Shown: positions 23,877 through 61,002 of the stretch, piece after piece
How the letters are laid out: each line of letters opens with the position of its first letter
Numbering within the stretch: position 1 is the first letter of the stretch
Origin: Gemmatimonadota bacterium
Lineage (GTDB): Bacteria; Gemmatimonadota; Gemmatimonadetes; Palauibacterales; Palauibacteraceae
Assembly (NCBI GenBank): GCA_958295535.1
Contig: OY282356.1
Span: forward strand, 1,945,614 to 2,009,613
Length of the DNA stretch: 64,000 bases
Direction: 5' to 3'
Made by a program: the position numbers and the translations under genes
The notes under the pieces: model-generated
What the model saw: the letters and a program-made list of their open reading frames with translations, nothing else
Databases searched by the model: none
Told to the model about the DNA's origin: nothing

Positions 23877-25847
23877 TCATGGGCGGAACTCCACCTTCCA
23901 TATGTTATCCAAACCGCCGTCTGCGAGGACATACTGGCCGGTTGAGAGGACGGAGATACCGTATTCCGGAAGAGGGATTTTCGCTAGGCATTTGTCGTCG
24001 AATATCGCGCCCCAATCGTTGAAGTAGAAGTCCAGGTCGTCGAAGGCGTACTGCTTGCGATCATCGGGAAGGTCGTTCACGTCGACCGGGTAAAGGTGCA
24101 GAAAGAACACGGCCTCCGTGTCGGCGGAGGTGCACGGATCCTTAGCGTAGATCAGCGCGTCCTCGCGAAGATACAGGTCAAAGTCGGAGCGGACCGCCGG
24201 TTCGCCGGACAAGAGCGAGTCAACGGCGGACTGTCGCGCACCGGCACTGTCATAGGCATCGTTCACTCTGTAGATGGCACCATCGGCAAGTTCCGCCACC
24301 GGCTCCAACGGGAGCGGCGACTCCATCTGCAAGAGGTCGCAATTTATTTGGGAGCGTTCGCCCGCGCCGACCCATACGACGTACTCTTCGGGTTCCCCGT
24401 ACCGCCGGGATTCCAGGATGGCCCGCTCGAACCAGCGCTGGCAATCGTAGATGTTCCGCAGGTTCCGCCGCGGCACCGGAACCCAGGTCACCCGCGTTCC
24501 CGTAATCCCCGCGTTCCACCGGAGTACGTTGGGGTCGTTGCTGTAGTACCGGTACTGGCCGGAGGCGGGGTTCGCACGGACATATTCCACCAGCTCGGAA
24601 TCCTCCCAGTACGCCGTGTTGAAACTCTGGCCGATGTACCCCGATTCCAGGGCTTCGGCGGTCAATTGCAGATTCCGCTGCACCGAGACGCCGATATGCC
24701 AAGCACCGCCGATAAGCGCGAGAGCAATCAGCGCCCGCCGGACCACGGACATCCTCCCCGACGCCCTGCTGCTCAGGAGTCCATCCAGCCAGAACGCCGC
24801 GACGAACAGCAGCGGGACGTAGACCGGCACGAGGTACCGGCTATCTATGCCTTGCTGGGCCGTGAACGGCACCACCACGGCCATGATCGCAAGGTACGAC
24901 AGCGCGAAGCCCCCGAAGACGGAAGACGCCCGGCCCGGGCGAGGGGTGATGAGGAGAAGCGCCGCCAGCAGCAGAACCATACCGGCAATCAGCCACGGCG
25001 AGTGCTGCAACTGCCAGTGGATCGGGGACGACGGGTCGGCCCACCCGTGGAACACCTCGACGATCTGGCCAAGCGAATCGAACAGGGACTGTCCCGACGC
25101 TAAGGACCTGTCCCCGGCGAGAGTTTCGGAGACCAGTAGGTTGCGCGCCAGCACAGCCGCGAGCGGGAGCGAGGAGATGGCGCCGAAGGCCAGGGCATGC
25201 TTCAACCGCTCTCGTACCGGAGTATTGCGGCGCAAAAAGAGCATAAGGACTGCGGAGAAGATGAGCGCGACCCCTACGTACCTCGTCGTCGCGGCCAGCG
25301 CGGCGAATGCGGCGGAAAGCGCGAGGCCCCGCACGCCGCTGCGTCGGTTCAGGAACGACTCCAGCAGCATCAGGGCGAGGAAGGTGAACAAGACGAAGAG
25401 GGGTTCGCTCAGCAGGGTCGAAGCGGAATGCGCGAGGGGGAGAGACGCCATCACCGCCACTGCTGCGCCGAGCGCGAGCAGCCGCGACTCGAGACGCCGG
25501 CTCAGCCAGAGACCCGACACCAGAATGAGCAGGCCGAAGGCGGCCGCGTTCAGGAACCGGCCTCCGTCCACCGGCTCGATGCCGAACAGGCTCAGGAACG
25601 CCATCGCCATGGGGAGGAAAGGCGCAAAGAGCACCACTTGCCCGCCGCCGGGACTCAGCAGACCCTCTCCGGCGGCCAAGCTCTCGGCTGCCGCCAAGTA
25701 GTTGAAGGCATCGTTGCCGAGCGCCGCGCCGTAGGTGGACGTACGGATGAGGATATGCGCCGTGCCCAGAGCCGCGACGAGCGCGATGAGCGCGGGAAGG
25801 AAACGGCGCCCCCCATCCCCATGCGCCCATTTGAAAGCGTCGTTCAC
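23877..25847 (-). CDS. ArnT/PMT_2-like GT-C membrane glycosyltransferase, paralog 1, with shared C-terminal domain
   Basis: An N-terminal TM helix is followed by the first-loop motif GNDAFNYLAAAESLAAGEGLL (ArnT-like D-x-x-x-Y...A..L..G.G), then ~10 TM helices and a periplasmic C-terminal region. It ends in the CTD VRSDFDLYLREDALIYAKDPCTSADTEAVFFLHLYPVDVNDLPDDRKQYAFDDLDFYFNDWGAIFDDKCLAKIPLPEYGISVLSTGQYVL. Confidence 0.75.
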   Translation of the reverse strand: MNDAFKWAHGDGGRRFLPALIALVAALGTAHILIRTSTYGAALGNDAFNYLAAAESLAAGEGLLSPGGGQVVLFAPFLPMAMAFLSLFGIEPVDGGRFLNAAAFGLLILVSGLWLSRRLESRLLALGAAVAVMASLPLAHSASTLLSEPLFVLFTFLALMLLESFLNRRSGVRGLALSAAFAALAATTRYVGVALIFSAVLMLFLRRNTPVRERLKHALAFGAISSLPLAAVLARNLLVSETLAGDRSLASGQSLFDSLGQIVEVFHGWADPSSPIHWQLQHSPWLIAGMVLLLAALLLITPRPGRASSVFGGFALSYLAIMAVVVPFTAQQGIDSRYLVPVYVPLLFVAAFWLDGLLSSRASGRMSVVRRALIALALIGGAWHIGVSVQRNLQLTAEALESGYIGQSFNTAYWEDSELVEYVRANPASGQYRYYSNDPNVLRWNAGITGTRVTWVPVPRRNLRNIYDCQRWFERAILESRRYGEPEEYVVWVGAGERSQINCDLLQMESPLPLEPVAELADGAIYRVNDAYDSAGARQSAVDSLLSGEPAVRSDFDLYLREDALIYAKDPCTSADTEAVFFLHLYPVDVNDLPDDRKQYAFDDLDFYFNDWGAIFDDKCLAKIPLPEYGISVLSTGQYVLADGGLDNIWKVEFRP

Positions 25848-25854
25848 CTCTTCA

Positions 25855-26106
25855 TCAGCGGCGGAGCTCCCCGTCCAGGAGGTGGTGGAAATCGCCTTCC
25901 CAGAGTTGTGCGGTGGAGCCGTCCTCGTTGACGAGGAACTGGCCGGTTCTGATTTCGGAGATACCGTATTCCGGGAGAGGGACTTGCGCTAGGCACTTGC
26001 CGGCTAATCTCTTGCCGTGCGTCTCGAAATTAAACAACATCACTGCTACGGTCAAGACGCTGGCCGTGGCAGGCAGAACGCGGATGCTGAAGGCCGAGAC
26101 ATCCAT
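25855..26106 (-). pseudogene. Remnant of a GT-C paralog: TM-helix fragment fused to the last ~50 residues of the shared C-terminal domain (internal deletion)
   Basis: MDVSAFSIRVLPATASVLTVAVMLF matches the early TM region of GT-C 52882..54855 (VDVSAFSIRVLPAAASVLTVAALLF). It is fused directly to FETHGKRLAGKCLAQVPLPEYGISEIRTGQFLVNEDGSTAQLWEGDF, which is the CTD tail. It lies immediately upstream of paralog 1 on the minus strand. Confidence 0.6.
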
Positions 26107-26202
26107 TTTCTGGACCGCCCACAGTGCCAGGGGAGGGGATACAATATGGGACTGGAGTTGCCGTAACGGGAGCGAAGGCCATTCCTCGAAGAAACCGCCC
26201 AG

Positions 26203-28632: not shown

Positions 28633-28652
28633 ACCGGGCGAGGAGACCTCCA

Positions 28653-30098: not shown

Positions 30099-30845
30099 TC
30101 ACAAGCGGTTCATCCGCTTGAACAGGCGCTCCGGGACAGCGCGCAAGACGAACATGATCGGACGCCAGATCCGGCGCACGTAGATCACATCGCGGCGGCG
30201 GCGAATTGCCGCCACGACCGCGGCGGCTACCTCTTCCGGGGTCGCGGTCAGCCGCTCCGGCAGGTCCATGCCGTCGGTCATGCGCGTACGCACGAAGCCC
30301 GGCTTGACCGTCACCACATGGGCGCCGGAGGCGGCCAGCCGGCCGCGCAGACCGGAGAGGAAAGCGGTGAACCCCGCCTTGGCCGAACCGTAGACGTAGT
30401 TCGCGGCCCGTCCCCGCTCGCCGGCAACCGAGCTGACGCCGACCAGGACGCCGCCGCCGCGACGCTCGAAGCGCTCTGCCAGCGCCCCCATCAGCAGCGC
30501 GGGGCCGACATAGTTGGTGCGCATCACGCGCTCGGCGGCGGCACAGTCCCGCCGACTTTCCGCCTGGTCGCCGAGCAGCCCGACGACGCACACAGCCACA
30601 TCGGGCAGCGGATCGAGCGTGTCTAGCAGCGAGACGCCACCATCTTCATCGAGCACATCGCACCGATGCGCGGTCACGGCGACCCCCGCGCGCACTCGGA
30701 TGTCGCGCACCTCTCTCTCCAGCCGCGCCCCGTCGCGGGCCGCGAGCTGCAATGCGCAGCCGTCTTCCGCCAGCGTGCGCGCGATGGCGCGGCCGATACC
30801 CGACGTGGCGCCGATCACCAGCGCTGTCTCGACTCTGCCGTTCAC
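30099..30845 (-). CDS. dprE2: DprE2-family short-chain dehydrogenase/reductase (polyprenyl-phospho-2-keto-pentofuranose reductase homolog)
   Basis: 248 aa. VIGATSGIGRAI (TGxxxGxG), SSVAGERGRAANYVYGSAKAG (catalytic S/Y/K), KPGFVRTRM and a C-terminal IMFVLRAVPERLFKRM. It is colinear with mycobacterial DprE2 (Rv3791: LLGGTSEIGLAI / [21 protein letters not shown] / RPGQVRTRM / YVMMVLRHIPRSIFRKL; from memory). 4-bp overlap with the upstream GT-C. Confidence 0.8.
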   Translation of the reverse strand: MNGRVETALVIGATSGIGRAIARTLAEDGCALQLAARDGARLEREVRDIRVRAGVAVTAHRCDVLDEDGGVSLLDTLDPLPDVAVCVVGLLGDQAESRRDCAAAERVMRTNYVGPALLMGALAERFERRGGGVLVGVSSVAGERGRAANYVYGSAKAGFTAFLSGLRGRLAASGAHVVTVKPGFVRTRMTDGMDLPERLTATPEEVAAAVVAAIRRRRDVIYVRRIWRPIMFVLRAVPERLFKRMNRL

Positions 30846-33133
30846 GGTACGGCTTTCCCGCCATCCGCCGACTCGACAACATCGAAGCTGCCCTCCCAGA
30901 TCTTCTGGCCCTCGCCGGTGAACTGGCCGGTGCGGATCGCGGTGATGCCGTAGTCGGGCAGATCCAGCCGGGCTACGCAGACTCGTCCGTCGACAAGGTG
31001 GTTCCTCAAATCAAAGTCGAGATTGTCGAAGCCGTACTGCTTGCGATGGCCGGGGAGGTCGTTCCTGTCAACCGGGTCCAGATGCACGAAGAACATTGGT
31101 TCGGCATCCTCCGGACTGCATGAGTCCTTGGCGTAGATGAGGCCGTCTTCAACAAGATACACATCCCAGTCGGAGCGGATGGTCGGCGGGCCGTCTCCGG
31201 CCAGTCTTGCCATGTAATCGCCCATCGGCACTGTTTCGATCCTGACCGTCTGGAGCGCATTGCGGGGCAGCACGAGCGCGGCCACGCACAAGCCCGTTTG
31301 CGTTCGCGTCCAGGCTTTGGCGACCGTTTCCTCTCCCGGACCAACCCCTGACAACACTATCAACTCGTTCGGCGCACAATTCCTGACGAACGCCTGCGTC
31401 AGCCGGCCGTCCACGATCAATCCGATGCTATCCGACTGGCGGTCGAAGTGGGGTTCAATCCTCTCCCAAGTCCTGGCGACGGTATTTTCATCTGCCGGAT
31501 TTTCATCTGTCGGCAGCCCGATGGGCCGTAGTTGGAGTTCCACTCCATTCAGGATGCTTGGCAGTCTCTCAAAGTGCTTGATTAAGGCCAAATGAGTTAT
31601 TCCGGCGCTATCCGCGTTTCCCGTGTGGAAGTAGTCATAAGAGTTGACCAAGCCATCCAGGTTCACCACTGGAAAGCGCGAGAAATACCCGATGGTGCCG
31701 CCCATGTCCCGCGCCCCGAACACGCCGTCCTCGGGATGCACGCGATTCATAATCTGCGTACCCCCATAAACGGCTTCAGTCCATTCATTGTTAGAAACGG
31801 CCTTGATCCATTTGTCGTCAGTTCTGGTTGAGACGCTGATCGCTTCAGCACGCCGAAATGGCTCGGTGAAATCGGCCTTGGCAAACAGGGATACCGCGGC
31901 GGCAATTGCAATGCCCACGCTCAGAATGTTTGCCGCCCAAGGCGACCTCGGTCCGATGAAACGGCGGATGAAGTAAATGGCGACGTAACCTCGCACGGGA
32001 ACGATCAGCGTCATCAGCAGGTACGCCGGGACAAAATACCAAGGCCAAGGCCCCAAGGAAGGGTGAATCGTGAGAACAGTCTGCGCGAATTTGGCCAGAT
32101 GGCCGGCTGCCAAACTGAACACGCCCACCAGAAATGCCAGCTGCAGCCAGTCCTCCCGACTCCGGGAGCGGCGGGCGAACCACCAAACGAGCAGGACATA
32201 GAAGCAGACCTCCAGCGCGACCAACAGCTCGTAGTCGAAGGCGGGAAGATGAAGGATGTCCCGGAAGTTCTGAACGAAGCTGTACCCGCCTTCCCGCTCC
32301 CACCGCTGCTGCGACCACATCTGCTTGGTTGCGCCGCTCACGGGCGTCACGCCCCCGAAGACGGTACCGTTATATGCGAAGTACACGAGGATGCCGACGA
32401 CCGCGCCCAGTAGTGGTGCGACGTGTTCATCGCGAGCACGGAATGGCCAACCCCTCTCGGGGGTGCCGAGGCCCTCTCCATCTCCCTCGACAGGGGGGAG
32501 TGACTCACGCCTCGACCACTCGACGAAGCACAGCGCCGCGGTCGCCGCCAGCGATATGGCGATGTACTCCAGGCGCACCCAGGGCAGGACAAAGGCGACC
32601 GCGGCCAGCGTCCACTTCCACCGCGCCGGGTTTCGTGCAAAGAGACAGACGGCCAGAATGAACAGGCCCAGCATGAACAGCGCCGCCGCCGCTTCCATTC
32701 CTGCAGTCATGAAGGTGATGTGGTAGAGCATCGGCAGCGCGGCGAACATCAGATACCACGGCATGCGCGCCAGCCGGGCGGCCGCGGCGACGAGCGCCAC
32801 GCCGCCGGCCACGAGCATGATCTCGAACGCCTTGATGGCGAACAGCGCGGCTTCCTTGTCGAATGCCCAGTAGAACGGCGTGATCAGAAACATCCAGATC
32901 GGATGATATCCGTTGGTGCGCGTTATGCCGCCGTCGAAGGTCGAGAACTTCCCCTCGGCCAGGTTGCTGGCGATCTGGAAGTAGTAAAAGGCGTCATCGT
33001 GCGTGTTGGAGATAAGGCTGATGAGATCGAAGCGGCCGAGCATGTACCAGGCGAACCCGGCCCCGTACGCCAGGATGCCCGCGACGAACAGGACGAACAG
33101 CGCGTTGCTCAGCCGGGAAGACGAGGTCCTCAC
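30842..33133 (-). CDS. ArnT/PMT_2-like GT-C membrane glycosyltransferase, paralog 2, with shared C-terminal domain
   Basis: First-loop motif THDDAFYYFQIASNLAEGKF, ~12 TM helices and a large periplasmic domain. CTD: TIRSDWDVYLVEDGLIYAKDSCSPEDAEPMFFVHLDPVDRNDLPGHRKQYGFDNLDFDLRNHLVDGRVCVARLDLPDYGITAIRTGQF. It lies between dprE1 and dprE2 homologs with 4-bp overlaps on both sides. Confidence 0.75.
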   Translation of the reverse strand: MRTSSSRLSNALFVLFVAGILAYGAGFAWYMLGRFDLISLISNTHDDAFYYFQIASNLAEGKFSTFDGGITRTNGYHPIWMFLITPFYWAFDKEAALFAIKAFEIMLVAGGVALVAAAARLARMPWYLMFAALPMLYHITFMTAGMEAAAALFMLGLFILAVCLFARNPARWKWTLAAVAFVLPWVRLEYIAISLAATAALCFVEWSRRESLPPVEGDGEGLGTPERGWPFRARDEHVAPLLGAVVGILVYFAYNGTVFGGVTPVSGATKQMWSQQRWEREGGYSFVQNFRDILHLPAFDYELLVALEVCFYVLLVWWFARRSRSREDWLQLAFLVGVFSLAAGHLAKFAQTVLTIHPSLGPWPWYFVPAYLLMTLIVPVRGYVAIYFIRRFIGPRSPWAANILSVGIAIAAAVSLFAKADFTEPFRRAEAISVSTRTDDKWIKAVSNNEWTEAVYGGTQIMNRVHPEDGVFGARDMGGTIGYFSRFPVVNLDGLVNSYDYFHTGNADSAGITHLALIKHFERLPSILNGVELQLRPIGLPTDENPADENTVARTWERIEPHFDRQSDSIGLIVDGRLTQAFVRNCAPNELIVLSGVGPGEETVAKAWTRTQTGLCVAALVLPRNALQTVRIETVPMGDYMARLAGDGPPTIRSDWDVYLVEDGLIYAKDSCSPEDAEPMFFVHLDPVDRNDLPGHRKQYGFDNLDFDLRNHLVDGRVCVARLDLPDYGITAIRTGQFTGEGQKIWEGSFDVVESADGGKAVP

Positions 33134-34422: not shown

Positions 34423-34531
34423 CCGGCAATCGACGGATGGATACCGACCCCAGCCCGAGAGGATTATGCGGCCCGCTCCCGGAACGCGAAGCGCGGACCA
34501 AGAAACGCGGGCGCCGCCGTGCCCGCGCGCG

Positions 34532-37931: not shown

Positions 37932-38443
37932 CGAAGCGGACCTCGCCTTCTCATGATGGCGATGCCGGACACCAACGCGCCGACAATCACGCCAGGGTAG
38001 TCGCCACTATCCTCATAGACAATTTTGTCGTCGAACGGACTGACAAGGAATGGCAGCGTCGCTCTGGCGATGCGGTAGAACTGATTCTCCAGGAAGTTCC
38101 CCCATTCAATCGCGGAGTTGTCCTCATGGAACCCTAAGCTATACGTCATGGACTTCACCGTAGGCAGTTCAGCCAGCGGGACCTCGCCGTCCAATGCCCG
38201 GTATTCGCTGCCGAGGTTGAAAGATAGCGCCGCCATGCCGAAAAGCAGGGTGACGACGCCCAGCTTCAGGTAGCGGCCGAACGGAGGCGCGGTGACGCAG
38301 CGCTTGATTCGACTTGCCAAACTCGGAGGAGCGAGCCGACGCACCCGGTTCAGCTCCCTCGCCATGCCCAAGACGATAAACGGCAGCAGCAGCGCATAGA
38401 CGTGCCATCCCAACAGCAACGCCGCGCACGCCTTGACGAGCAA
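37928..38443 (-). CDS. Hypothetical small membrane protein (171 aa)
   Basis: ORF translationally coupled to the downstream GT-C (4-bp overlap). N- and C-terminal hydrophobic helices (LLLGWHVYALLLPFIVLGM; GVIVGALVSGIAIM) flank a ~100-aa segment. No family recognised. Confidence 0.35.
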   Translation of the reverse strand: MLVKACAALLLGWHVYALLLPFIVLGMARELNRVRRLAPPSLASRIKRCVTAPPFGRYLKLGVVTLLFGMAALSFNLGSEYRALDGEVPLAELPTVKSMTYSLGFHEDNSAIEWGNFLENQFYRIARATLPFLVSPFDDKIVYEDSGDYPGVIVGALVSGIAIMRRRGPLR

Positions 38444-51367: not shown

Positions 51368-51415
51368 CAGTCGGGCCTCTCCGCTTCTGAACGAGGAACG
51401 CCGCCGTGGCGCAGG

Positions 51416-51675
51416 CTAGGCCGATAACGAAATTGTAGGCCCCATGGTGAGCAGATGATTAAACGTCATGCCGTACATGGCCATCACGACAACCCATCCG
51501 ACGACTGAATCTCTGCCCAGTGGCTTCGGCACAGTCCAAAGCAACCGCATCAAGAATAACAGAGACAGCAAGCACAATGCCAATGGAATAATACCCGCTT
51601 CGCCAGCCAGTATCAGGTACACGTTGTGGACTCCAGTCGGTTCCCCCCGGTTTCCGATGGGGGCGCCAACGCCAC
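51416..51675 (-). pseudogene. Fragment of a Wzy_C (O-antigen ligase/polymerase) paralog C-terminus
   Basis: GAPIGNRGEPTGVHNVYLILAGEAGIIPLALCLLSLLFLMRLLWTVPKPLGRDSVVGWVVVMAMYGMTFNHLLTMG is ~85% identical to the C-terminus of 63324..64000. It is fused at ~51675 to the 3' end of the FAD-oxidoreductase pseudogene. Confidence 0.5.
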
Positions 51676-52892
51676 CGCGACGGTCCGAGCAACCTCCCGG
51701 CCCTGCCGGATCGCATAGTTCGTGCCCCGGTCTTCCAGATAGATCTGGGCCATGGTCGCCAGAAACAGGTTCGTCACAGGCATGCGCGTAGGGGGAATCA
51801 GCCGGCGGTAGCCGCGCTCCACGACGGGCTGCGCGTAGCGCGCGCGCCAGACGTGGGCAGCCAGTATCCGGTCGTCCGTCAGGTCGGGAAACATCCGCCG
51901 CAGGTGTTCGAGCGTGAACGCGACCGCTTCCTCGTCCGGCATCCCCCACAGCGCGTCGCTCTCGGGCAGATAGCGGGACAGATACACGATGTGCCGCCCG
52001 GCGTAGGTCGAGGCAGGCTCGAAGTTGGTGTGCTCGATGACTCCCACGAAGGGGAAGCCGGGGTCGTTGACGTTCAGCCAGTAGATGTCCGACAGGCTGC
52101 AGTCGAGCTCGAGCACGACGCACACATTGGCCAGATAGCGGATGCGCCGCAGGCCGTCCACGTAATCGCCCGGCGCGTACCCGCAAGCCCGTGACCGGAG
52201 CTCCGGTGCGGATTTCTCCACCTTGGTCTCGGATGGCCCGGGCCAGCGCGTCGGCGAGGGCTGCGAAGCCGCCGCGGTAATAGGCCAGCCGTTCCCTGCC
52301 GCCTCTGCCGCGGCTGCCGCCCCTGAGCTTGAGCTTGTTCCAGAACCACACCGCCGCCACCTCTTCCGCCAAGTCGCCGAACTTGCCCCGCAGGAGCGGC
52401 GCCCACACCACCCGGTAGACCCGCTCGCCACCCATGTCCCGCAGCCAGTCGGCCGCGGTGCGGTCTTCAAGGCCGCTCCACTCCTTCACCCGGCGCACGC
52501 GCAATGCCAGCAGCCCCAGCCGGATGCGGTCGAAGAACGGAAGGGGCGAGAAGCGCAGGAGGTCGAGGGGCGTCGAGAGCTTGAAGAAGTCGTGGGCGTA
52601 GTACGTGCTGGTCCGGGTAGGACGCAGCACCACCTCGGCCGACCGGCCCAACTCCGCGATGAGATTCATCACATGGACGTCGCTGGTGAACCAGTGGTGG
52701 TAGAACTTCTCGAGCCGCACCGGCGGCGGGAAAGCTGCCGGCGAGGCCGCCGACTTCGGCGTCCCGCTCCAGCACCGTGGCGCGTAGGCCGCGCCGGCCC
52801 AACTCGTAGGCCGCGGCTAGCCCGCAGAAGCCGCCGCCGATCACCGCGACATGGGGCCGGGCAGACGCCGGCCGTCGTGGGCTACTTGTCAA
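51676..52892 (-). pseudogene. FAD/NAD(P)-binding oxidoreductase (amine-oxidase/phytoene-desaturase-like fold), copy A; frameshifted by a 107-bp deletion and 3'-replaced
   Basis: Colinear with the intact copy 54852..56201 (HVAVIGGGFCGLAAAYELGRRG...). It lacks the 107-bp segment present at 55378..55484, which is bounded by a cgcgt direct repeat, and this causes a frameshift (ORFs 51613..52470, 51416..52720 etc.). Its 3' end is joined to the Wzy_C fragment. Confidence 0.6.
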
Positions 52893-54855
52893 AACGAATT
52901 TCCCCTTCCCAGAGGTGTGCGGTGGAGCCGTCCTCGCGGACGAGGAACTGGCCGGTGCGGACGCGGGCGATGGCGTAGTCGGGAAGCTCGCGCAGAGCGA
53001 CGCACCGCTCGGCTGACCGAAACCAACGGCCACCACGGTCGTTGACGCGGAAGTCGAGGTTGTCGAAGCCGTACTGCTTTCTGTGATCAGGAAGGTCGTT
53101 CTCGTCCGCCGGGACAACATGCAGGAAGAAGGTTTCCTGCGCGTCCTCTGCACCGCACGACTCCTTGACATAGATCAACATGTCCTCGGTGAGATGGACA
53201 TCGAAGGTGGAGCGGATTGACGGCTTACGAGTCAAGATTGCCTCCAAATCTCTCACCGCATCAGTAGCGTGACGGTTTATCAAGGCTGCCGCATCTTCAA
53301 TCAGATAGACGTCATGGGGTCCAAACACGACCTGCTCAACCGAAAGCCCGGACATATCCGGTAGCCAGGGACCGACAAACCAGATTCTTCCGTCCACGAT
53401 GCCGGACCAGTGGGCCAAATCAGCCATCTCGCGGAGACACGACTTGGAGGAGCGCCAGCACCAACCGGAGTTTCCATAGTGGTAATTGGCCGGTCTTTCT
53501 TCATTTCCTCGATAGAACCGCATGGCCGGGACCGCCCCCCAGTCTGCGTAGACCATGTCCTCTTCCCGCACCCGTTCTTTCAGTACGGCGAGAACGGATT
53601 CGATGTTTACGGCAAGAGCGGGATCGATGTTTTCACGTGTCTGGTACGGACTGTCCTGCCGCATGGCGCCCACCCCGGCAAGCACCATCGCGCCGGCCAT
53701 CGCAACGAGCAAGGCCGGCGTCGTCCACCCCCGGCGCGTGAGCGAGGACAAACGACCGGCGGTCCAATGAAACGCCAAGCCGACCGCCAGGAAGACAATC
53801 GGACCCAGATAGATGGTCTGGCGAATGCCCCCAAGCGGATATATTCGCAGCACGGCAGCACCGACCAGAACTGCAAGGGAAAGCGAAAATAAAACTGCGA
53901 TGGCACCGTCAATGGGGTTTCCTCGAAACTTTCCGAGGAGTGCTGTGGCGAGGAGGATCGCGAATGCGGCAAGCGCCGCTATCGCAACGACATCCGGCAA
54001 ATGATACGTCAATAGACTCCAGATCCCGTCAATCGAAAACTCGAAGACCTCGAGGATCGAGTGCGGGTAGAATTTTCCCTGATAGTAATACGGTCGCAGA
54101 TAGCCGGTCGGGGCGAAGTCCGGTGCACCCAACTGATAGCGCGCAGTCATCAAGTAGCTTGTGGCACCTCCCGCCAGAAAGCACGCCGCTGGCGCGAGCA
54201 GGGCGATGCGCTGCCTGAGCCAATGAGGAATCCGGCTCAGGTACGAGTTCCATTCCGATGCCCCTAAAGTCGGGGGGGGGGGCAGAACCACAGCGGCGCC
54301 AATGACGGCGACGCCGAACAGAACCAAGCCGTACTGGAGCAAGGGCGCGAGGAACAGCGCAACGCAGAGCAGGGCCTTCCGGCCGTGCCGCAGATACCAC
54401 AGCAGTCCCGCTATCATCAGCGTGGCCAGCAGCGCGTCGATGGAGTATTCGCGCGCATCCTGGGCGTGATATATCGCGGCAACCGAAAGAGTCGCCAGCA
54501 GCGCCGCCAGAAACGCGGCCCACCGGCTCGCTCCGGCGCGGGGAAGCAGAAAGAGCAGGGCCGCCACGGTCAGAACGCTGGCCGCCGCCGGCAGAACGCG
54601 GATGCTGAAGGCGGATACATCCACTTTCTGCACCGCCCACAGCGCCAGAGGGTACAGTATAGGCGAGGAGTTCCCGTAGCGGGTATTGGGGACTACTTCC
54701 GAGAGAGCGCCACTCGAATTATTGGCCGCTGCCGCTTCGTCATGCCGTAGAGACTTCTCCGGCAGGTCATGGAAGCGCAGCCCTGCCGCGGCGACAAGCA
54801 GGCAAACACAGGCCGCGTAGAACAGATGCGTTTTGCGGTCCCAGCTGAATGTCAT
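52882..54855 (-). CDS. ArnT/PMT_2-like GT-C membrane glycosyltransferase, paralog A, with shared C-terminal domain; contains a C11 homopolymer
   Basis: ATG 54855 (MTFSWDRKTHLFYAACVCLLVAAAGLRFHDL...); the listed 943-aa ORF adds an out-of-frame overlap with the upstream gene. First-loop motif LRHDEAAAANNS (ArnT-like DE), ~12 TM helices. CTD: SIRSTFDVHLTEDMLIYVKESCGAEDAQETFFLHVVPADENDLPDHRKQYGFDNLDFRVNDRGGRWFRSAERCVALRELPDYAIARVRTGQF. About 85-90% identical to paralog B. Confidence 0.75.
   Translation of the reverse strand: MTFSWDRKTHLFYAACVCLLVAAAGLRFHDLPEKSLRHDEAAAANNSSGALSEVVPNTRYGNSSPILYPLALWAVQKVDVSAFSIRVLPAAASVLTVAALLFLLPRAGASRWAAFLAALLATLSVAAIYHAQDAREYSIDALLATLMIAGLLWYLRHGRKALLCVALFLAPLLQYGLVLFGVAVIGAAVVLPPPPTLGASEWNSYLSRIPHWLRQRIALLAPAACFLAGGATSYLMTARYQLGAPDFAPTGYLRPYYYQGKFYPHSILEVFEFSIDGIWSLLTYHLPDVVAIAALAAFAILLATALLGKFRGNPIDGAIAVLFSLSLAVLVGAAVLRIYPLGGIRQTIYLGPIVFLAVGLAFHWTAGRLSSLTRRGWTTPALLVAMAGAMVLAGVGAMRQDSPYQTRENIDPALAVNIESVLAVLKERVREEDMVYADWGAVPAMRFYRGNEERPANYHYGNSGWCWRSSKSCLREMADLAHWSGIVDGRIWFVGPWLPDMSGLSVEQVVFGPHDVYLIEDAAALINRHATDAVRDLEAILTRKPSIRSTFDVHLTEDMLIYVKESCGAEDAQETFFLHVVPADENDLPDHRKQYGFDNLDFRVNDRGGRWFRSAERCVALRELPDYAIARVRTGQFLVREDGSTAHLWEGEIRFDK
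54272..54282 (-). repeat. Homopolymeric tract G11 (C11 on the coding strand) inside GT-C paralog A, encoding Pro-Pro-Pro-Pro
   Basis: cccctaaagtcGGGGGGGGGGGcagaacc on the plus strand; on the coding strand gtt ctg ccc ccc ccc ccg act tta gives VLPPPPTLG. Paralog B has no tract at the equivalent position (..LVAPRVSGQARW..). Confidence 0.9.
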
Positions 54856-56201
54856 CCTGCACCTTCCGACGCCGCCGCGACGGTCCGGGCAACCTCCCGG
54901 CCCTGCCGGATCGCATAGTTCGTGCCCCGGTCTTCCGGATAGATCTGGGCCATCGTCGCCAGAAACAGGTTCGTCACAGGCATGCGCGTAGGGGGGATCA
55001 GCAGCCGGTAGCCGCGCTCCACGACGGGCTGCGCGTAGCGCGCGCGCCAGACGTGGGCAGCCAGTATCCGGTCGTCCGTCAGGTCGGGAAACATCCGCCG
55101 CAGGTGTTCGAGCGTGAACGCGACCGCTTCCTCGTCCGGCATCCCCCACAGCGCGTCGCTCTCGGGCAGATAGCGGGACAGATACACGATGTGCCGCCCG
55201 GCGTAGGTCGAGGCAGGCTCGAAGTTGGTGTGCTCGATGACTCCCACGAAGGGGAAGCTTGGGTCGTTGACGTTCAGCCAGTAGATGTCCGACAGGCTGC
55301 GGTCGAGCTCGAGCACGACGCACACATTGGCCAGATAGCGGATGCGCCGCAGGCCGTCCACGTAATCGCCCGGCGCGTGAGGCGCCACGAGGTCGGCGAC
55401 GATGGGCAGCGCCGGCGTCGCGATCACGGCGTCGGCGGCCAGCGTCGCCTCCGGCGTGACCACGCCGGTCCCCCGCCCGTCGCGTACCCGCAAGCCCGTG
55501 ACCGGAGCTCCGGTGCGGATTTCTCCACCTTGGTCTCGGATGGCCAGGGCCAGCGCGTCGGCGAGGGCTGCGAAGCCGCCGCGGTAATAGGCCAGCCGTT
55601 CCCTGCCGCCTCTGCCGCGGCTGCCGCCCCTGAGCTTGAGCTTGTTCCAGAACCACACCGCCGCCACCTCTTCCGCCAAGTCGCCGAACTTGCCCCGCAG
55701 GAGCGGCGCCCACACCACCCGGTAGACCCGCTCGCCACCCATGTCCCGCAGCCAGTCGGCCGCGGTGCGGTCTTCAAGGCCGCTCCACTCCTTCACCCGG
55801 CGCACGCGCAATGCCAGCAGCCCCAGCCGGATGCGGTCGAAGAACGGAAGGGGCGAGAAGCGCAGGAGGTCGAGGGGCGTCGAGAGCTTGAAGAAGTCGT
55901 GGGCGTAGTACGTGCCGGTCCGGGTAGGACGCAGCACCACCTCGGCCGACCGGCCTAACTCCGCGATGAGATTCATCACATGAACATCGTTGGTGAACCA
56001 GTGGTGGTAGAACTTCTCGAGCCGCGCACCGCCGGCGGGAAAGCTGCCGGCGAGGCCGCCGACTTCGGCGTCCCGCTCCAGCACCGTGGCGCGTACGCCG
56101 CGCCGGCCCAACTCGTAGGCCGCGGCTAGCCCGCAGAAGCCGCCGCCGATCACCGCGACATGGGGCCGGGCAGACGCCGGCCGTCGTGGGCTACTTGTCA
56201 A
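54852..56201 (-). CDS. FAD/NAD(P)-binding oxidoreductase (amine-oxidase/phytoene-desaturase-like fold), intact copy B
   Basis: Rossmann dinucleotide motif RPHVAVIGGGFCGLAAAYELGRRGVRATVLERDAEVGGLAGSF, then ~400 aa (..YYRGGFAALADALA..; ..GVVTPEATLAADAVIATPALPIVADLV..). The start is ambiguous: TTG 56201 overlaps the upstream GT-C stop; GTG 56153 is the alternative. The upstream part of the listed 542-aa ORF is out-of-frame overlap with GT-C B. Confidence 0.7.
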   Translation of the reverse strand: MTSSPRRPASARPHVAVIGGGFCGLAAAYELGRRGVRATVLERDAEVGGLAGSFPAGGARLEKFYHHWFTNDVHVMNLIAELGRSAEVVLRPTRTGTYYAHDFFKLSTPLDLLRFSPLPFFDRIRLGLLALRVRRVKEWSGLEDRTAADWLRDMGGERVYRVVWAPLLRGKFGDLAEEVAAVWFWNKLKLRGGSRGRGGRERLAYYRGGFAALADALALAIRDQGGEIRTGAPVTGLRVRDGRGTGVVTPEATLAADAVIATPALPIVADLVAPHAPGDYVDGLRRIRYLANVCVVLELDRSLSDIYWLNVNDPSFPFVGVIEHTNFEPASTYAGRHIVYLSRYLPESDALWGMPDEEAVAFTLEHLRRMFPDLTDDRILAAHVWRARYAQPVVERGYRLLIPPTRMPVTNLFLATMAQIYPEDRGTNYAIRQGREVARTVAAASEGAG

Positions 56202-58173
56202 AACGAATTTCCCCTTCCCAGAGGTGTGCGGTGGAGCCGTCCTCGCGGACGAGGAACTGGCCGGTGCGGACGCGGGTGATGGGGTAATCGGGAAGCTTGC
56301 GCAGAGCGACGCACCGCTCGGCTGACCGAAACCAACGGCCACCACGGTCGTTGACGCGGAAGTCGAGGTTGTCGAAGCCGTACTGCTTTCTGTGATCAGG
56401 AAGGTCGTTCTCGTCCGCCGGGACAACATGCAGGAAGAAGGTTTCCTGCGCGTCCTCTGCACCGCACGACTCCTTGACATAGATCAACATGTCCTCGGTG
56501 AGATGGACATCGAAGGTGGAGCGGATTGACGGCTTACGAGTCAAGATTGCCTCCAAATCTCTCACCGCATCAGTAGCGTGACGGTTTATCAAGGCTGCCG
56601 TATCTTCAATCAGATAAACGTCATGGGGTCCAAACACGACCTGCTCAACCGAAAGCCCGGACATATCCGGTAGCCAGGGACCGACAAACCAGATTCTTCC
56701 GTTTGCGATGCCGAGCCAGTAGGCCAAGTCAGCCATCTCACGGAGACACGAATTGGAGGAGTTCCCGCACCAACCGGAGGTCCCATAGTGGTAATTGGCC
56801 GGTCTTTCTTCATTTCGTTGATAGAACTGCAAGATCGGGACTGCCCCCCAGCCTGCGTAGACCATGTCCTCTTTCCGCATCCGTTCTTTCAGTACGGCGA
56901 GAACGGATTTGATGTTGTTACGTATCTGGTACGGACTGTCCTGCCGAATGGCGCCCACCCCGGCAAGCACTGTCGCGCCGGCCATCGCAACGAGCAAGGC
57001 CGGCGTCGTCCACCCCCGGCGGGTGAGCGAGGACAAACGACCGGCGGTCCAATGAAACGCCAAGCCGACCGCCAGGAAGACAATCGGACCCAGATAGATG
57101 ACTTGGCGGGTGCCTCCAAGCGGATATATTCCCAGCACGGCGGCACCGACAGAAACCGCAAGGGAAAGCGAAAATAGAACTGCGATGGCGCCGTCATGGG
57201 GCTTTCCTCGAAACTTTCCGAGGAATGCTGCGACCAGGAGGATCGCGAATGCGGCAAGTGCCGCTATCGCAACGACATCCGGCAAATGATATGTCAATAG
57301 ACTCCAGATCCCGTCAATCGAAAACTCGAAGACCTCGAAGATCGAGTGCGGGTAGAATGTTCCCTGATAGTAATACTGTCGCAGATAGCCGGTCGGGGCG
57401 AAGTCCGGTTGACCCCACTGATGGCGTACAGTCACCAAGTAGCTGACGGTACTCCCCGCCAGGAAGAACCCACAGGGCGCGACCAAGTCCAGGCGTCGTT
57501 TCAACCAGCCACCGATCCGGCCAGGATAGGCACTCCACCTTGCCTGTCCGGAGACGCGTGGAGCGACGAGGGCGGCGCCAATGACGGCGGCGCCGAACAG
57601 GACCAAACCGTACTGGAGCAACGGCGCAAGGAACAGCGAAACGCAAAGCAGGGCCTTCCGGCCGTCCCGCAGATGTCGCAGCAGCCCCGCCATCATCAGC
57701 ACGGTAAGCAGTGCGTCGATAGAGTATTCCCGCACATCCTGGGCGTGCCAGATTGCTTCAACGGAAAGCGTGGCGAGCAGGGCCGCCAGAAACGCGGCGC
57801 CCCGAGCGACGCCGAGACGCGGCAGCAAGAAGAGCATCAAGGCGATGGTCAGAACGCTGGCCGTCGCCGGCACGATTCGAACGCTGAAGGGCGTGCTCTC
57901 GACTTTCTGGACCGCGTACAGGACCAGGGGGTACAGGATTGGAGAGGAGTTAGCGTAACGGGTACCGGGGATGACTTCCGAGAGCGCACCTCTCGAAATA
58001 TTGGCCGCTGCCGCTTCGTCATGCCGTAGAGACTTCTCCGAAAGGTCATGGAAGCGCAGCCCCGCCGCGGCGACAAGCAGGCAGACACAGGCGGCGTAGT
58101 ACAGACGCGTTTTGCGGTCGCGGCCGAAATCAGCGATGCGCCGGGTCATGGCGCGCATCCCTATCGCTCGCAT
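56191..58173 (-). CDS. ArnT/PMT_2-like GT-C membrane glycosyltransferase, paralog B, with shared C-terminal domain
   Basis: 660 aa. LRHDEAAAANISRGALSEV first-loop motif, ~12 TM helices, CTD identical in motif to paralog A (...FFLHVVPADENDLPDHRKQYGFDNLDFRVNDRGGRWFRSAERCVALRKLPDYPITRVRTGQF). Confidence 0.75.
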   Translation of the reverse strand: MRAIGMRAMTRRIADFGRDRKTRLYYAACVCLLVAAAGLRFHDLSEKSLRHDEAAAANISRGALSEVIPGTRYANSSPILYPLVLYAVQKVESTPFSVRIVPATASVLTIALMLFLLPRLGVARGAAFLAALLATLSVEAIWHAQDVREYSIDALLTVLMMAGLLRHLRDGRKALLCVSLFLAPLLQYGLVLFGAAVIGAALVAPRVSGQARWSAYPGRIGGWLKRRLDLVAPCGFFLAGSTVSYLVTVRHQWGQPDFAPTGYLRQYYYQGTFYPHSIFEVFEFSIDGIWSLLTYHLPDVVAIAALAAFAILLVAAFLGKFRGKPHDGAIAVLFSLSLAVSVGAAVLGIYPLGGTRQVIYLGPIVFLAVGLAFHWTAGRLSSLTRRGWTTPALLVAMAGATVLAGVGAIRQDSPYQIRNNIKSVLAVLKERMRKEDMVYAGWGAVPILQFYQRNEERPANYHYGTSGWCGNSSNSCLREMADLAYWLGIANGRIWFVGPWLPDMSGLSVEQVVFGPHDVYLIEDTAALINRHATDAVRDLEAILTRKPSIRSTFDVHLTEDMLIYVKESCGAEDAQETFFLHVVPADENDLPDHRKQYGFDNLDFRVNDRGGRWFRSAERCVALRKLPDYPITRVRTGQFLVREDGSTAHLWEGEIRFDK

Positions 58174-58633
58174 CGGGCCTCCCCCGCGGCGTCCGGCCGG
58201 ATCGCTCCGAAGACGGCGGCATTCAACGGCCCGGCGACACGCAAAACAGCCGAAGCGTCCAGTATCTTCAAGGATTGCTCAGAGACGCGGGGGCCCTTGT
58301 GCATTGTCGGCCAAGGGAACGAAGAACGCTTTGTTGGCCACCTTGTCCTCCTTGATTCGCTGTAACAGACGCCTGAAGCCAAGATGGCGCAGAGCAAAAG
58401 CCGCACCAGTGCCCAAAGGCCGAGAGCCACAAAGACCTGGCACCCACCGCCAAGTTCACGGCTCGTCGCGGCGTGCGGTCGAACTTCGGCGCTCCGCAGA
58501 GGGAAGGCAAGATTGCGGCCGCGGGTCCGTGGAGGCGGCTACCCGCTTCATCCCGTAGCAACCGCGGCAATAGTGCGGAATGTCGCCGCTGGCAATTCGC
58601 CGACGCAGCTCCCGGTATTTGTCGTTGTTCCAA
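58161..58633 (-). pseudogene. Degraded sulfotransferase paralog fragment
   Basis: LCGAPKFDRTPRRAVNLAVGARSLWLSAFGHWCGF and SEQSLKILDASAV match the C-terminal region of 41306..42160 (LCRAPKFDRVPRQAANQAVAARSLWLSAFGHWCGF; SEESLGVLDASAV). There is no N-terminal PAPS-binding part and the frame is broken. Confidence 0.5.
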
Positions 58634-58700
58634 ACATCGGCTTGTCCACCGAGGCGGATCAAGAGTTCGGATTTTCTGATAATCTCATCTATCTGCGGCG
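58456..58700 (-). pseudogene. 3' fragment of a radical-SAM/SPASM paralog
   Basis: ADVWNNDKYRELRRRIASGDIPHYCRGCYGMKRVAAST matches the C-terminus of 50210..51367 (ADVWNNDKYRELRRRIADNDIPHYCRSCYGMKPVATST). The nucleotide match begins ~58530. Confidence 0.5.
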
Positions 58701-58787
58701 AATGGTCTTCCTGGCGGTAGAGAAAAATATGTCTATCGCGGTCGCGACGGAAACGGACGATGCGTCGGGCTATGGCGCGCGCATCCC

Positions 58788-60138
58788 TTATCGCTCGCAT
58801 CGGGCCTCCACCTCGACTCCCGTCCAGATCGTTGTAGCTGCGCGGTTGTTTGGAGGTCTCCTCCGAATCAAGGGCCATGCGATGTACCGAGAACCCGTCA
58901 TCGCGCACCGTCCGACGCCGCCGCGACGGTCCGGGCAACCTCCCGGCCCTGCCGGATCGCATAGTTCGTGCCCCGGTCTTCCGGATAGATCTGGGCCATC
59001 GTCGCCAGAAACAGGTTCGTCACAGGCATGCGCGTAGCGGGGATCAGCAGGCGGTAGCCGCGCTCCACGACGGGTTGCGCGTAGCGCGTGCGCCAGACGT
59101 GGGCAGCCAGTATCCGGTCGTCCGTCAGGTCGGGAAACATCCGCCGCAGGTGTTCGAGCGTGAACGCGACCGCTTCCTCGTCCGGCATCCCCCACAGCGC
59201 GTCGCTCTCGGGCAGATAGCGGGACAGATACACGATGTGCCGCCCGGCGTAGATCGAGGCAGGCTCGAAGTTGGTGTGCTCGATGACTCCCACGAAGGGG
59301 AAGCTTGGGTCGTTGACGTTCAGCCAGTAGATGTCCGACAGGCTGCGGTCGAGCTCGAGCACGACGCACACATTGGCCAGATAGCGGATGCGCCGCAGGC
59401 CGTCCACGTAATCGCCCGTCGCGTACCCGCAAGCCCGTGACCGGAGCTCCGGTGCGGATTTCTCCACCTTGGTCTCGGATGGCCAGGGCCAGCGCGTCGG
59501 CGAGGGCTGCGAAGCCGCCGCGGTAATAGGCCAGCCGTTCCCTGCCGCCTCTGCCGCGGCTGCCGCCCCTGAGCTTGAGCTTGTTCCAGAACCACACCGC
59601 CGCCACCTCTTCCGCCAAGTCGCCGAACTTGCCCCGCAGGAGCGGCGCCCACACCACCCGGTAGACCCGCTCGCCACCCATGTCCCGCAGCCAGTCGGCC
59701 GTGATGCGGTCTTCGAGGCCGCTCCACTCCTTCACCCGGCGCACGCGCAATGCCAGCAGCCCCAGCCGGATGCGGTCGAAGAACGGAAGGGGCGAGAAGC
59801 GCAGGAGGTCGAGGGGCGTCGAGAGCTTGAAGAAGTCGTGGGCGTAGTACGTGCCGGTCCGGGTAGGACGCAGCACCACCTCGGCCGACCGGCCCAACTC
59901 CGCGATGAGATTCATCACATGAACATCGTTGGTGAACCAGTGGTGGTAGAACTTCTCGAGCCGCACCGGCGGCGGGAAAGCTGCCGGCGAGGCCGCCGAC
60001 TTCGGCGTCCCGCTCCAGCACCGTGGCGCGTACGCCGCGCCGGCCCAACTCGTAGGCCGCGGCTAGCCCGCAGAAGCCGCCGCCGATCACCGCGACATGG
60101 GGCCGGGCAGACGCCGGCCGTCGTGGGCTACTTGTCAA
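58788..60138 (-). pseudogene. FAD/NAD(P)-binding oxidoreductase, copy C; carries the same 107-bp frameshifting deletion as copy A
   Basis: Colinear with copy B. It is split over ORFs 58788..59966, 58898..59677 and 59320..60303. The deletion point (...atcgcccgtcgcgtacccgcaagcc...) is the same as in copy A. Confidence 0.6.
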
Positions 60139-61002
60139 AACGAATTTCCCCTTCCCAGAGGCGTGCGGCGGAGCCGTCCTCGCGGACGAGGTACTGGCCG
60201 GTTCTGATTTCGGAGATGCCGTATTCCGGGATAGGGACCGTTGCCAGGCACTTGTCATCGAATCTGTCGCCGTGCCGGTCGAAATAGAAGTCCAGGTTGT
60301 CAAAGCCGTTCCGCTTGCGATCGTCTGGCAGGTCTGCCACCTCGACGGGATACAGGTGCAGAAAGAACGCCGCCTCCGTGTCGGCGCGGGCGCACGGGTC
60401 CTTGGCGAAGATCAGACTTCCCTCGCCAAGATAGACGTCGAACACACTGCGAACCGCTGGCTCGCCGACAGTCGCCGACGACAAGTGGGCGTCTAGCCAC
60501 CGCCGTTTCTCCTTGAACCAGCGCTCCACTTCCCAAAGGAGATTCCAATCGCGGTCAACCTGTCCGGTTCGGTAGCCGCTTTCACATAGTTGCCGAACTG
60601 CCACCAACTCTAGCAAGGGGTCCCGAGACAAGGCGCTTCGGGGGTCGTCGGCCTGCTGCCGAGAGCACTCTAACCCCTGGTCACGGAAATGGAAATAGAG
60701 GACGTGCACCTCTCCGCCGCCAAGTGTGGTCGACCATGCGGACCGTAGATGATCCGGTTCGCATGGCAGGGCGTAATGGCGTCGCGGACTGTCGGCGTAC
60801 AATGCCATGACGGAGACGGCATTGCTCCGGATCGCGCCTGTCAGAGCCGCCTCCCGAATGTACTGGACGCTCTCCGAATTCCTCTACCGCGGGGTGGCAA
60901 ACGCATGTTGCGCACCGGCATTCCAGCGCGGCATCTCGCGGGCATTCAGCACAACCAGCCAAACCGCCTGCAGGGACAGCGCCAACATCAGGACGGCCGC
61001 GA
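60128..61002 (-). pseudogene. Deletion derivative of a GT-C paralog related to 38528..41164: mid-region fragments + intact shared C-terminal domain only
   Basis: ORF 60128..60808 contains HYALPCEPDHL...SRQQADDPRSALSRDPLLE and GQVDRDWNLLWEVERWFKEKRRW, which match internal segments of paralog 4. It ends with a full CTD (VRSVFDVYLGEGSLIFAKDPCARADTEAAFFLHLYPVEVADLPDDRKRNGFDNLDFYFDRHGDRFDDKCLATVPIPEYGISEIRTGQYLV...). No TM/GT-C core. 60700..61000 matches 39750..40050 in another frame. Confidence 0.6.

Follow-up and report, generated by a model that had tools for sequence, protein, structure and literature searches.

A previously unannotated beta-sandwich domain at the C-termini of unrelated membrane and envelope enzymes, and its apparent spread across bacterial phyla

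Results

Nine copies of a terminal domain lie in one surface-polysaccharide region

The 64,000-nucleotide stretch of contig OY282356.1 from a Gemmatimonadota bacterium (hereafter, the window) is devoted as a whole to surface polysaccharide, with genes for Wzx-like flippases, Wzy_C proteins, GT2 and GT4 transferases, and an epimerase, together with radical-SAM enzymes, sulfatase-fold proteins, and a sulfotransferase-like protein. In this region, nine copies of a terminal domain of approximately 105 amino acids with two cysteines were found, of which seven are full, one is half, and one is degenerate. The copies were located by searching the six-frame translation of the window with a hidden Markov model (HMM) built from the seven full C-terminal domains. 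Each full copy matched with an independent E-value of 1e-45 to 1e-55, the next best match in the window had E > 1, and the copy number was far above chance. The letters refer to the carrier genes listed further below.

2584-2913, minus strand: full copy in G
23883-24194, minus strand: full copy in A
30875-31180, minus strand: full copy in B
38534-38842, minus strand: full copy, terminal in D
52885-53217, minus strand: full copy in E
56194-56526, minus strand: full copy in F
60131-60454, minus strand: full copy within the remnant r2
25885-26052, minus strand: half copy (second half of the domain) in the remnant r1, independent E-value 2e-20
38912-39199, minus strand: degenerate copy internal to D, independent E-value 7.5e-12

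The part of each protein upstream of the domain is referred to as its core. Intact genes are labelled A to G, and remnants r1 and r2; a remnant of a further core family (fam9) is listed with them.

2569-4992, minus strand: G, 807-amino-acid polytopic membrane protein without a Pfam family
23877-25847, minus strand: A, 656-amino-acid polytopic protein of core family 1, PMT_2-like below the threshold
30842-33133, minus strand: B, 763-amino-acid polytopic protein of core family 0 with an HDDAFYYF motif
36033-37931, minus strand: C, 632-amino-acid paralog of A and D, 39% identical to D
38528-41164, minus strand: D, 878-amino-acid protein of core family 1
52882-54855, minus strand: E, 657-amino-acid protein of core family 2 with an HDEAAAA motif
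56191-58173, minus strand: F, 660-amino-acid recent duplicate of E
25855-26195, minus strand: r1, remnant joining E/F-type core fragments to the second half of the domain
60128-60808, minus strand: r2, remnant of a D-type gene with the core end, a trace of the degenerate copy, a linker, and a full domain
37928-38443, minus strand: fam9 core remnant, 55% identical to residues 214-417 of a 733-amino-acid core

A preliminary description of this locus had named the carrier genes and stated that all of them but C end in the domain. The named open reading frames (ORFs) are all present, their translations end in the described sequence, and the HMM detects copies in A, B, D, E, F, G, r1, and r2. For D and E, the longest ORFs extend further upstream, yet the translations indicate that the internal ATG codons chosen earlier, at 41164 and 54855, look right. 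The internal copy of D had been missed; it is the only exception in the window to the statement that the domain is always C-terminal. Elsewhere, that statement fits nearly all copies in the related loci (see below), although tandem arrays and a few internal copies occur.

No copy of the terminal domain was detected in C by the HMM search of the window; its C-terminus is occupied instead by a second unannotated domain of approximately 80 amino acids (W-x-W-x-R ... W ... Y-T-x-x-x-x-D-x-G-x-x-L-R ... Y-x-D/E; no Pfam match), here called WxWxR. In D, the order is core, WxWxR domain, degenerate copy, and terminal domain. The WxWxR domain was also observed in a fam9 core from a Dehalococcoidia locus, and its sites in the window are as follows.

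36060-36311: C-terminal beta domain of C
39284-39529: junction of core and terminal domain in D
4474-4680: N-terminal loop of G
approximately 7900-8150: within a Wzy_C-type ORF at 6678-8627, plus strand

Similar domains are attached to cores without mutual similarity

When the window cores were compared by BLASTP, they fell into four groups without mutual match: {A, C, D}, {E, F}, B, and G. Identities were 30-39% within the first group and 79% within the second, and the core of G was a singleton among the sampled cores (fam11). The terminal domains of the window paralogs, in contrast, are 40-59% identical in every combination, with E and F as the only recent duplicate pair (core 79%, domain 97%). 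Whole-gene duplication, which had been named in advance as an explanation that would remove the interest of the similarity, is therefore ruled out as its source except for E and F. The accompanying claim that the domain is conserved while the cores diverge is true of paralogs. Among orthologues it fails: in the comparison of synonymous divergence (dS) given below, the domain has changed no less than the core.

The domain is a new family by sequence and an ordinary beta-sandwich by predicted fold

Scans of the domain region found no match in Pfam-A or NCBIfam, and a profile built from 74 domain sequences found nothing among the PDB sequences, in agreement with the earlier view of an unannotated new family. 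An AlphaFold2 model computed on the 74-sequence alignment (predicted local distance difference test score, pLDDT, 94.4; predicted template-modeling score, pTM, 0.85) is all-beta, with seven strands and short helical turns. Its structural neighbors are generic, comprising Ig-like domains of GH2 enzymes, FN3, CBM9, and CBM56, and most of the closest folds belong to protein-binding FN3 and cytokine-receptor domains. As modeled, the domain folds independently into a seven-strand beta-sandwich with a conserved cysteine pair. It is a new family at the sequence level and, judging from the model, resembles an ordinary Ig/FN3/carbohydrate-binding module (CBM)-type sandwich at the fold level, so that the earlier description of it as not Ig-like calls for correction. 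As in CBMs, the predicted beta-sandwich is appended to carbohydrate-active enzymes, judging from the model and from the partners identified by Pfam (see below); the domain did not belong to any defined CBM family by sequence or close structure.

In the 74-sequence alignment, every sequence has the first cysteine and at least 90% have the second, so that both are conserved, as proposed earlier. The further conserved positions hold aromatic or polar residues (F, Y, W, H, R, D, N, Q, and T), and a long acidic loop, P-x-D-x-x-D-L-P-x-x-R-x-x-x-G-F-D-N-L-D-F, is also conserved. Its G-F-D-N-L-D-F part could hold Ca2+.

The domain occurs on many types of extracytoplasmic enzyme

A profile search of 1.84 billion representative proteins recovered 2,496 clusters at E <= 1e-3 and 2,011 at E <= 1e-10. 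Many of these carriers hold 2-10 tandem copies of the domain, examples being a Wzy_C-type protein with ten copies and a transmembrane-anchored protein consisting of seven; one GT-C-like carrier also has polysaccharide-deacetylase modules (Polysacc_deac_1). Short proteins of 95-200 amino acids were considered as a stand-alone family and rejected, as most of them are pieces that gene calling had cut from truncated or longer genes, and they lack signal peptides. They came from a word-indexed protein search with the short domain profile that listed only proteins of at most 200 amino acids even though there are thousands of long carriers, and the listed lengths do not reflect architecture.

One genome per GTDB species was also scanned, and the best 80 of 207 relatives yielded 76 loci. 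These contain 210 domain copies, nearly all of which end 0-10 residues before the stop codon of ORFs of 450-980 amino acids. The upstream regions cluster into at least 12 BLAST-distinct core families, most of them polytopic and without a Pfam match; one (fam8) exceeds the PMT_2 threshold. Three are not polytopic, namely a GSDH dehydrogenase with cytochrome c, an arylsulfotransferase, and a GDSL/SGNH hydrolase. The Pfam families matched by partners are GSDH with Cytochrom_C, Arylsulfotrans, Lipase_GDSL_2, PMT_2, Wzy_C, and Polysacc_deac_1; all partners identified in this way are envelope enzymes that act on glycans, or relatives of such enzymes, and many cores match no Pfam family. In the window itself, a GSDH-type dehydrogenase (61389-63284, minus strand) adjoins r2; it lacks the terminal domain and is 49% identical to the domain-bearing GSDH-cytochrome c cores of other genomes.

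Bacterial c-type cytochromes are extracytoplasmic, and the domain is fused directly behind a cytochrome c domain, which places it outside the cytoplasm. A hydrophobic N-terminal signal or anchor was found in 12 of 14 GSDH-type members and also in the arylsulfotransferase and GDSL/SGNH types. As a canonical lipobox was present in only 2 of the 14 soluble-enzyme fusions, the claim is limited to a hydrophobic signal or anchor. Hydropathy and the positive-inside rule are too crude to fix the orientation, and the placement, which agrees with the periplasmic location proposed earlier, rests on these fusion partners. The same partners contradict two further suggestions of the preliminary description: with at least 12 distinct cores, soluble enzymes among them, the domain is not specific to GT-C proteins or to one glycan system, and binding of a lipid carrier is unlikely because soluble periplasmic enzymes bear it too. 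The domain is instead a general, promiscuous extracytoplasmic module, usually C-terminal and occurring singly or in arrays of up to ten.

The likeliest role is that of a carbohydrate-binding or targeting module, which would hold different enzymes on one nascent surface polysaccharide, much as CBMs do for glycoside hydrolases. The identified carriers are enzymes that build or edit envelope glycans at the outer face of the cytoplasmic membrane, and they range over PMT_2/GT-C-like transferases, Wzy-like ligases or polymerases, a deacetylase, GDSL/SGNH hydrolases, an arylsulfotransferase, and a sugar dehydrogenase-cytochrome c. This glycan-targeting role, which we favor tentatively and would not call quite an even bet, is suggested by the fold class taken together with the glycan-acting partners, the conserved aromatic and polar residues, the acidic loop, and the tandem arrays, which point to avidity for a ligand of repeating units. 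A precedent exists in the mycobacterial Emb and AftD proteins, where periplasmic C-terminal domains serve arabinosyltransferases in this way.

A beta-sandwich of approximately 100 amino acids at the extreme C-terminus of many proteins per genome would also suit a sorting signal that directs its carrier to a secretion or anchoring machine, like the C-terminal domains (CTDs) of the type IX secretion system (T9SS). We reject this explanation as having hardly any likelihood. Polytopic inner-membrane proteins are not exportable, tandem arrays and internal copies do not suit such a signal, and the carriers include Chloroflexota and Gammaproteobacteria. Moreover, the NCBIfam scan of the domain region gave no match to the T9SS CTD models TIGR04183 and TIGR04131.

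The window cores are partly supported as GT-C proteins

The preliminary description had counted six intact GT-C glycosyltransferases in the window. Their ORFs are present, the GT-C class being an interpretation, and by hydropathy, a crude measure, A to G have 9-11 transmembrane segments in their first 400-530 or so residues, followed by 220-480 soluble residues. This layout corresponds to that of GT-C proteins, with 8-13 transmembrane helices and an extracytoplasmic soluble domain. At the family level, 12 of 25 members of the A/C/D type match PMT_2 at E < 0.01 (best 3.3e-7), and the domain-bearing fam8 core scores 38.5 bits, above the threshold. All Pfam matches of the window proteins themselves, however, are below the gathering score: C and A reach 24.9 and 21.3 bits against the PMT_2 cut-off of 26.1, and E reaches 17.7 bits against the PMT cut-off of 22.7. 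B, D, F, and G gave no PMT_2 or PMT match in the Pfam scan.

Acidic motifs, which are candidates for the DD/DE/DxD motif of the first extracytoplasmic loop of GT-C proteins, can be read in the sequences of B (HDDAFYYF), E and F (HDEAAAA), A (GNDAFNY), and D (GWDAVNY). A profile-profile alignment (hhalign) gave a probability of 82.7% (E 9.5e-6) for a link between the B and A families, over 318 columns that include the DDAFYYF/NDAFNY motif; for the E/F family against the A family, the probability was only 55%, and G showed no link to the other core families. No match was obtained when the B, A/C/D, and E/F family profiles were compared with the PDB sequences. GT-C membership of the window cores, as judged from these sequence comparisons, is therefore only partly supported.

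Domains recombine between paralogs

Between orthologues, the dS of a domain often differs from that of its own core. For A and its Latescibacteria orthologue, the core dS was 0.32 and the domain dS 0.83; for D and its Pseudomonadales orthologue, the values were 0.375 and 0.87. When all loci are compared, the type of core has little effect on how similar two domains are: identity was 78% for the same core family in the same genome, 63% for different core families in the same genome, 58% for the same core family in different genomes, and 56% for different core families in different genomes. In 49 of 153 cases, the closest relative of a domain was attached to another core family.

The remnants show how such discordance arises. 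In r2, which is the tail of a D-type gene, the 5' 252 nucleotides of the domain match D at 75% identity and E at 58%, whereas over the 3' 62 nucleotides the identity is 95% with E/F and 57% with D; the breakpoint lies near 60193, at the invariant Thr-Gly-Gln codons. The domain fragment of r1, an E/F-type gene with an internal deletion, is a mosaic as well, with a D/r2-like 5' end and an E/F-like 3' end. The region thus evolves by duplication, decay, and tail exchange, and its domains recombine between paralogs.

These data bear on two other explanations. In the first, the domain would be a docking or oligomerisation module resembling dockerins, by which enzymes are plugged into a scaffold or into each other in a periplasmic glycan-assembly complex. 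A single module on many enzymes, plausibly of one pathway, would suit this role, as would the nearest folds being mostly protein-binding FN3 and cytokine-receptor domains; and the greater likeness of domains within a genome, whatever the core (63% versus 56%), is expected if each co-evolves with a genome-specific partner. That likeness, however, is already explained by the recombination demonstrated here, and arrays of up to ten copies are more in keeping with avidity for a polymer. Next to the domain genes of the window and the loci, where no systematic search was made, no conserved gene stood out as a candidate partner. Docking is a credible but unlikely explanation.

In the second, the domain would be an inert spacer or stabilizing Ig-like fold that matters mainly at the DNA level, as a 3' recombination handle by which cores and tails are shuffled. 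The clean breakpoints at the Thr-Gly-Gln codons, the discordant histories of domains and cores, and the abundance of truncated copies, which could serve as donors, all speak for such a handle. A pure spacer or DNA handle, on the other hand, would not hold F, Y, T, Q, H, R, D, and W invariant; residues of the surface type are strongly conserved over approximately 2,500 clusters, and the ratio of nonsynonymous to synonymous divergence (dN/dS) is below 1. Most copies, at 56% amino acid identity, are also too diverged for homologous recombination. We regard this explanation as highly doubtful.

Whole genes are shared across phylum labels

The 76 loci derive from 32 genomes, mostly closed chromosomes of metagenome-assembled genomes (MAGs), labelled as Dehalococcoidia, Caldilineaceae, Latescibacteria, Candidatus Entotheonella, Gammaproteobacteria/Pseudomonadales/Arenicellales, Bryobacterales/Terriglobia, and Binatia; by these labels, the carriers belong to at least six phyla. 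This phylogenetic spread and the nucleotide identity across phyla described next, the most striking side of the family, had been missed in the preliminary description. The 32 genomes contain at least 174 distinct domain ORFs, with up to 14 per genome, and short remnants make up 15% of the copies in the loci.

Across stretches of 2-3.4 kb, whole window genes share 80-90% nucleotide identity with loci that bear other phylum labels (Latescibacteria, Gammaproteobacteria, Entotheonella, Binatia, Acidobacteria, and Chloroflexota), and the amino acid identity of cores across phylum labels reaches 80-88%. In 15 pairs of window genes with genes of other genomes (Nei-Gojobori method), the core dS was 0.31-0.65, far from saturation even at the GC content of third codon positions found here. 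Vertical descent from the common ancestor of the phyla cannot give such values. Provided that the MAG labels are right, the straightforward reading is recent inter-phylum transfer with fast protein evolution, which these comparisons indicate. Assembly chimeras were ruled out because the copies are 10-20% diverged. Mobile vectors were ruled out as far as the plasmid, phage, and IMG/VR collections are concerned, with no copy of the domain in 72,556 plasmids, 50,697 phage records, or IMG/VR.

In cross-genome pairs, dN/dS was 0.35-0.67 in the cores and 0.24-0.59 in the domain. For copies separated so recently, the ratio is uniformly high over entire membrane proteins of 600-900 amino acids, and its level suggests relaxed or diversifying selection on the whole set of genes. 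Genes without the domain are shared as well: the GT2 gene at 44828-46828 is 88% identical in nucleotide sequence to a Gammaproteobacteria locus, the sulfotransferase-like gene at 41328-42223 is 86-87% identical to loci with other phylum labels, and the GT4 and flippase genes at 21665-23615 are 81% identical to a Dehalococcoidia locus. An entire glycan island, beyond single genes, appears to have been traded.

Lateral transfer among sponge symbionts has been documented (PMC8163846; Robbins et al., 2021), and the families found there to be enriched in sponges and laterally transferred are eukaryote-like repeats, FN3, cadherins, and restriction-modification/CRISPR systems. No description of the present domain family was found in the literature, and its motif strings were unmatched in the text of 8 million papers. 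The domain gave one weak match in 241 million Joint Genome Institute (JGI) metagenome records. The set of labels is the typical consortium of high-microbial-abundance sponges, and the accession series and isolate names resemble those of the Aquatic Symbiosis Genomics sponge projects, for which sponge data notes exist. Two European Nucleotide Archive matches fall in PANK22-1_SAMN... records, which are probably the sponge metagenomes of Pankey et al. (2022). The carriers are therefore probably sponge symbionts; a search of paper texts for their accession numbers, as a check of sponge origin, gave no match.

A further explanation is that the domain faces the host or phages, displayed on the cell as a surface module for recognition by the sponge (self versus food, or adhesion to the matrix) or as a phage decoy. 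This would account for both the habitat restriction and the fast evolution. In its favor are the confinement to taxa typical of sponge microbiomes, with nearly no copies in the JGI records and none in the plasmid, phage, and IMG/VR collections, the high dN/dS (0.35-0.67), and the precedent of laterally transferred FN3 and cadherin attachment proteins in sponge symbionts (PMC8163846). In diderms such as Gammaproteobacteria, Latescibacteria, and Acidobacteria, however, a domain tethered to the inner membrane is periplasmic and unexposed; it is attached to enzymes rather than to adhesin stalks, and its own dN/dS stays below 1. We consider a host- or phage-facing role improbable.

Neighboring genes suggest a modified polysaccharide and a prenyl-linked donor for one carrier

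B lies within a complete-looking decaprenyl-phospho-arabinose (DPA)-type operon outside Actinobacteria (30099-36103, minus strand), in which it is flanked by the following genes.

34532-36103, minus strand: HAD and UbiA prenyl-phosphate phosphoribosyltransferase-like gene, upstream of B
33130-34422, minus strand: DprE1-like FAD_binding_4 protein, upstream of B
30099-30845, minus strand: DprE2-like short-chain dehydrogenase, downstream of B

This context suggests that B may use a polyprenyl-phosphate-sugar donor. Co-occurrence of the domain with DprE1 and DprE2, which had been raised earlier, was borne out by the neighbor genes in the loci for the B-type core and failed for all other core types: DprE1/DprE2/UbiA-like genes adjoin only B-type cores in other loci (5 of 31). 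The DprE1- and DprE2-like genes are 80-87% identical at the amino acid level in loci labelled Terriglobia, Pseudomonadales, Gammaproteobacteria, and Entotheonella.

Around E and F, the minus strand from 51416 to 60808 is a tandem triplication of a two-gene unit consisting of an E/F-type membrane protein and a flavin adenine dinucleotide-dependent oxidoreductase. The oxidoreductase copies (approximately 51416-52720, 54852-56150, and 58788-59966) are 96-100% identical in parts, and in the third unit, the membrane gene is replaced by r2. The same oxidoreductase adjoins E/F-type genes in Entotheonella and Latescibacteria loci (87% amino acid identity). Further enzymes of the window hint at an unusually modified polysaccharide, possibly sulfated or methylated.

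11800-14043, plus strand: B12-binding radical-SAM enzyme
14947-16449, plus strand: sulfatase-fold membrane protein
17773-19473, plus strand: sulfatase-fold membrane protein
41306-42160, minus strand: sulfotransferase-like protein
50210-51367, minus strand: SPASM radical-SAM enzyme

Discussion

We are highly confident of the descriptive results taken jointly: the domain is real, a beta-sandwich, extracytoplasmic, and modular, and it has spread across phyla and recombines. Genes comprising cores and domains have spread recently by horizontal transfer between bacteria labelled as at least six phyla, probably ones that share a sponge host, and they evolve fast by duplication, decay, and recombination, with the domain-coding DNA as a site of recombination between paralogs.

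Several points weigh against the picture as a whole, which includes the glycan-targeting role. The ligand and binding site of the domain are hypothetical, and its disulfide and binding groove are putative. The GT-C nature of the window cores depends on Pfam matches below the threshold and one profile-profile link, and a full-length AlphaFold2 model of B was unusable (pLDDT 52.8), probably owing to all 70 aligned homologues being at least 64% identical. Phylum labels were taken as given in the MAG records, and the sponge habitat was deduced from the set of taxa and record names.

A broader interpretation, which is speculative and on balance fairly improbable, is that sponge symbionts possess a "surface-glycan toolkit" specific to their habitat and shared by horizontal transfer, of which the domain is the mark. 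Unrelated bacteria (Chloroflexota, Latescibacterota, Tectomicrobia, Acidobacteriota, Binatota, and Gammaproteobacteria) would exchange the same envelope-glycan enzymes, each tagged with one glycan-recognition module, and with them make or edit a surface polysaccharide common to all; the sponge might read the polysaccharide as the mark of residents as opposed to food, or it might protect against shared phages, and the truncated domain copies could be donor cassettes for diversifying recombination.

If these readings are correct, approximately 2,500 protein clusters gain a defined, confidently modeled domain outside Pfam-A and NCBIfam, and the envelope-glycan enzymes are seen to pass, as a whole class, from phylum to phylum inside a single host-associated community. 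A dS of approximately 0.3 would make this a concrete, datable case of inter-phylum gene flow. There would also be a molecular handle on how very different bacteria persist inside a phagocytic filter feeder, and a new class of accessory module on biosynthetic rather than degradative membrane enzymes.

One close parallel is mycobacterial. The GT-C arabinosyltransferases EmbA, EmbB, and EmbC and AftD have periplasmic C-terminal carbohydrate-binding domains. Like them, the present proteins place a soluble, beta-rich domain after the last transmembrane helix of a putative polyprenyl-phosphate-sugar-dependent transferase, and the operon of B, with DprE1-, DprE2-, and UbiA-like genes, resembles the DPA pathway. 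Unlike them, the domain described here is much smaller (approximately 105 amino acids), has no sequence similarity to theirs (profile against the PDB), and occurs also on soluble enzymes that are not transferases and in long arrays. At the level of fold, its neighbors are the CBM9, CBM56, and GH2 Ig-like accessory domains of carbohydrate-active enzymes.

Dockerins share with it the principle of one conserved, usually C-terminal module on unrelated enzymes of a single functional system, but they are Ca-binding helical EF-hand-like repeats of approximately 70 amino acids with a known cohesin partner, whereas the present domain is an all-beta sandwich. T9SS CTDs (TIGR04183/TIGR04131) are likewise beta-sandwiches of approximately 80-100 amino acids at the extreme C-terminus of diverse proteins; they are carried by signal-peptide cargo of Bacteroidota and removed after secretion, whereas our domain is carried by polytopic membrane proteins, forms arrays, and occurs in phyla other than Bacteroidota. 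With the families of PMC8163846, it shares cross-phylum transfer in the sponge microbiome and beta-sandwich extracellular modules. It differs in that the terms glycosyltransferase, glycosyl transferase, and mannosyltransferase are absent from that paper, and the present family had no annotation by which it could be picked up.

An accessory beta-sandwich module on carbohydrate-active enzymes is thus already known in kind. What is new is an unannotated family of approximately 2,500 clusters, its attachment to many unrelated types of biosynthetic membrane enzyme, its apparent restriction to one host-associated community, and the way in which complete genes have recently spread between phyla while recombining at the domain.

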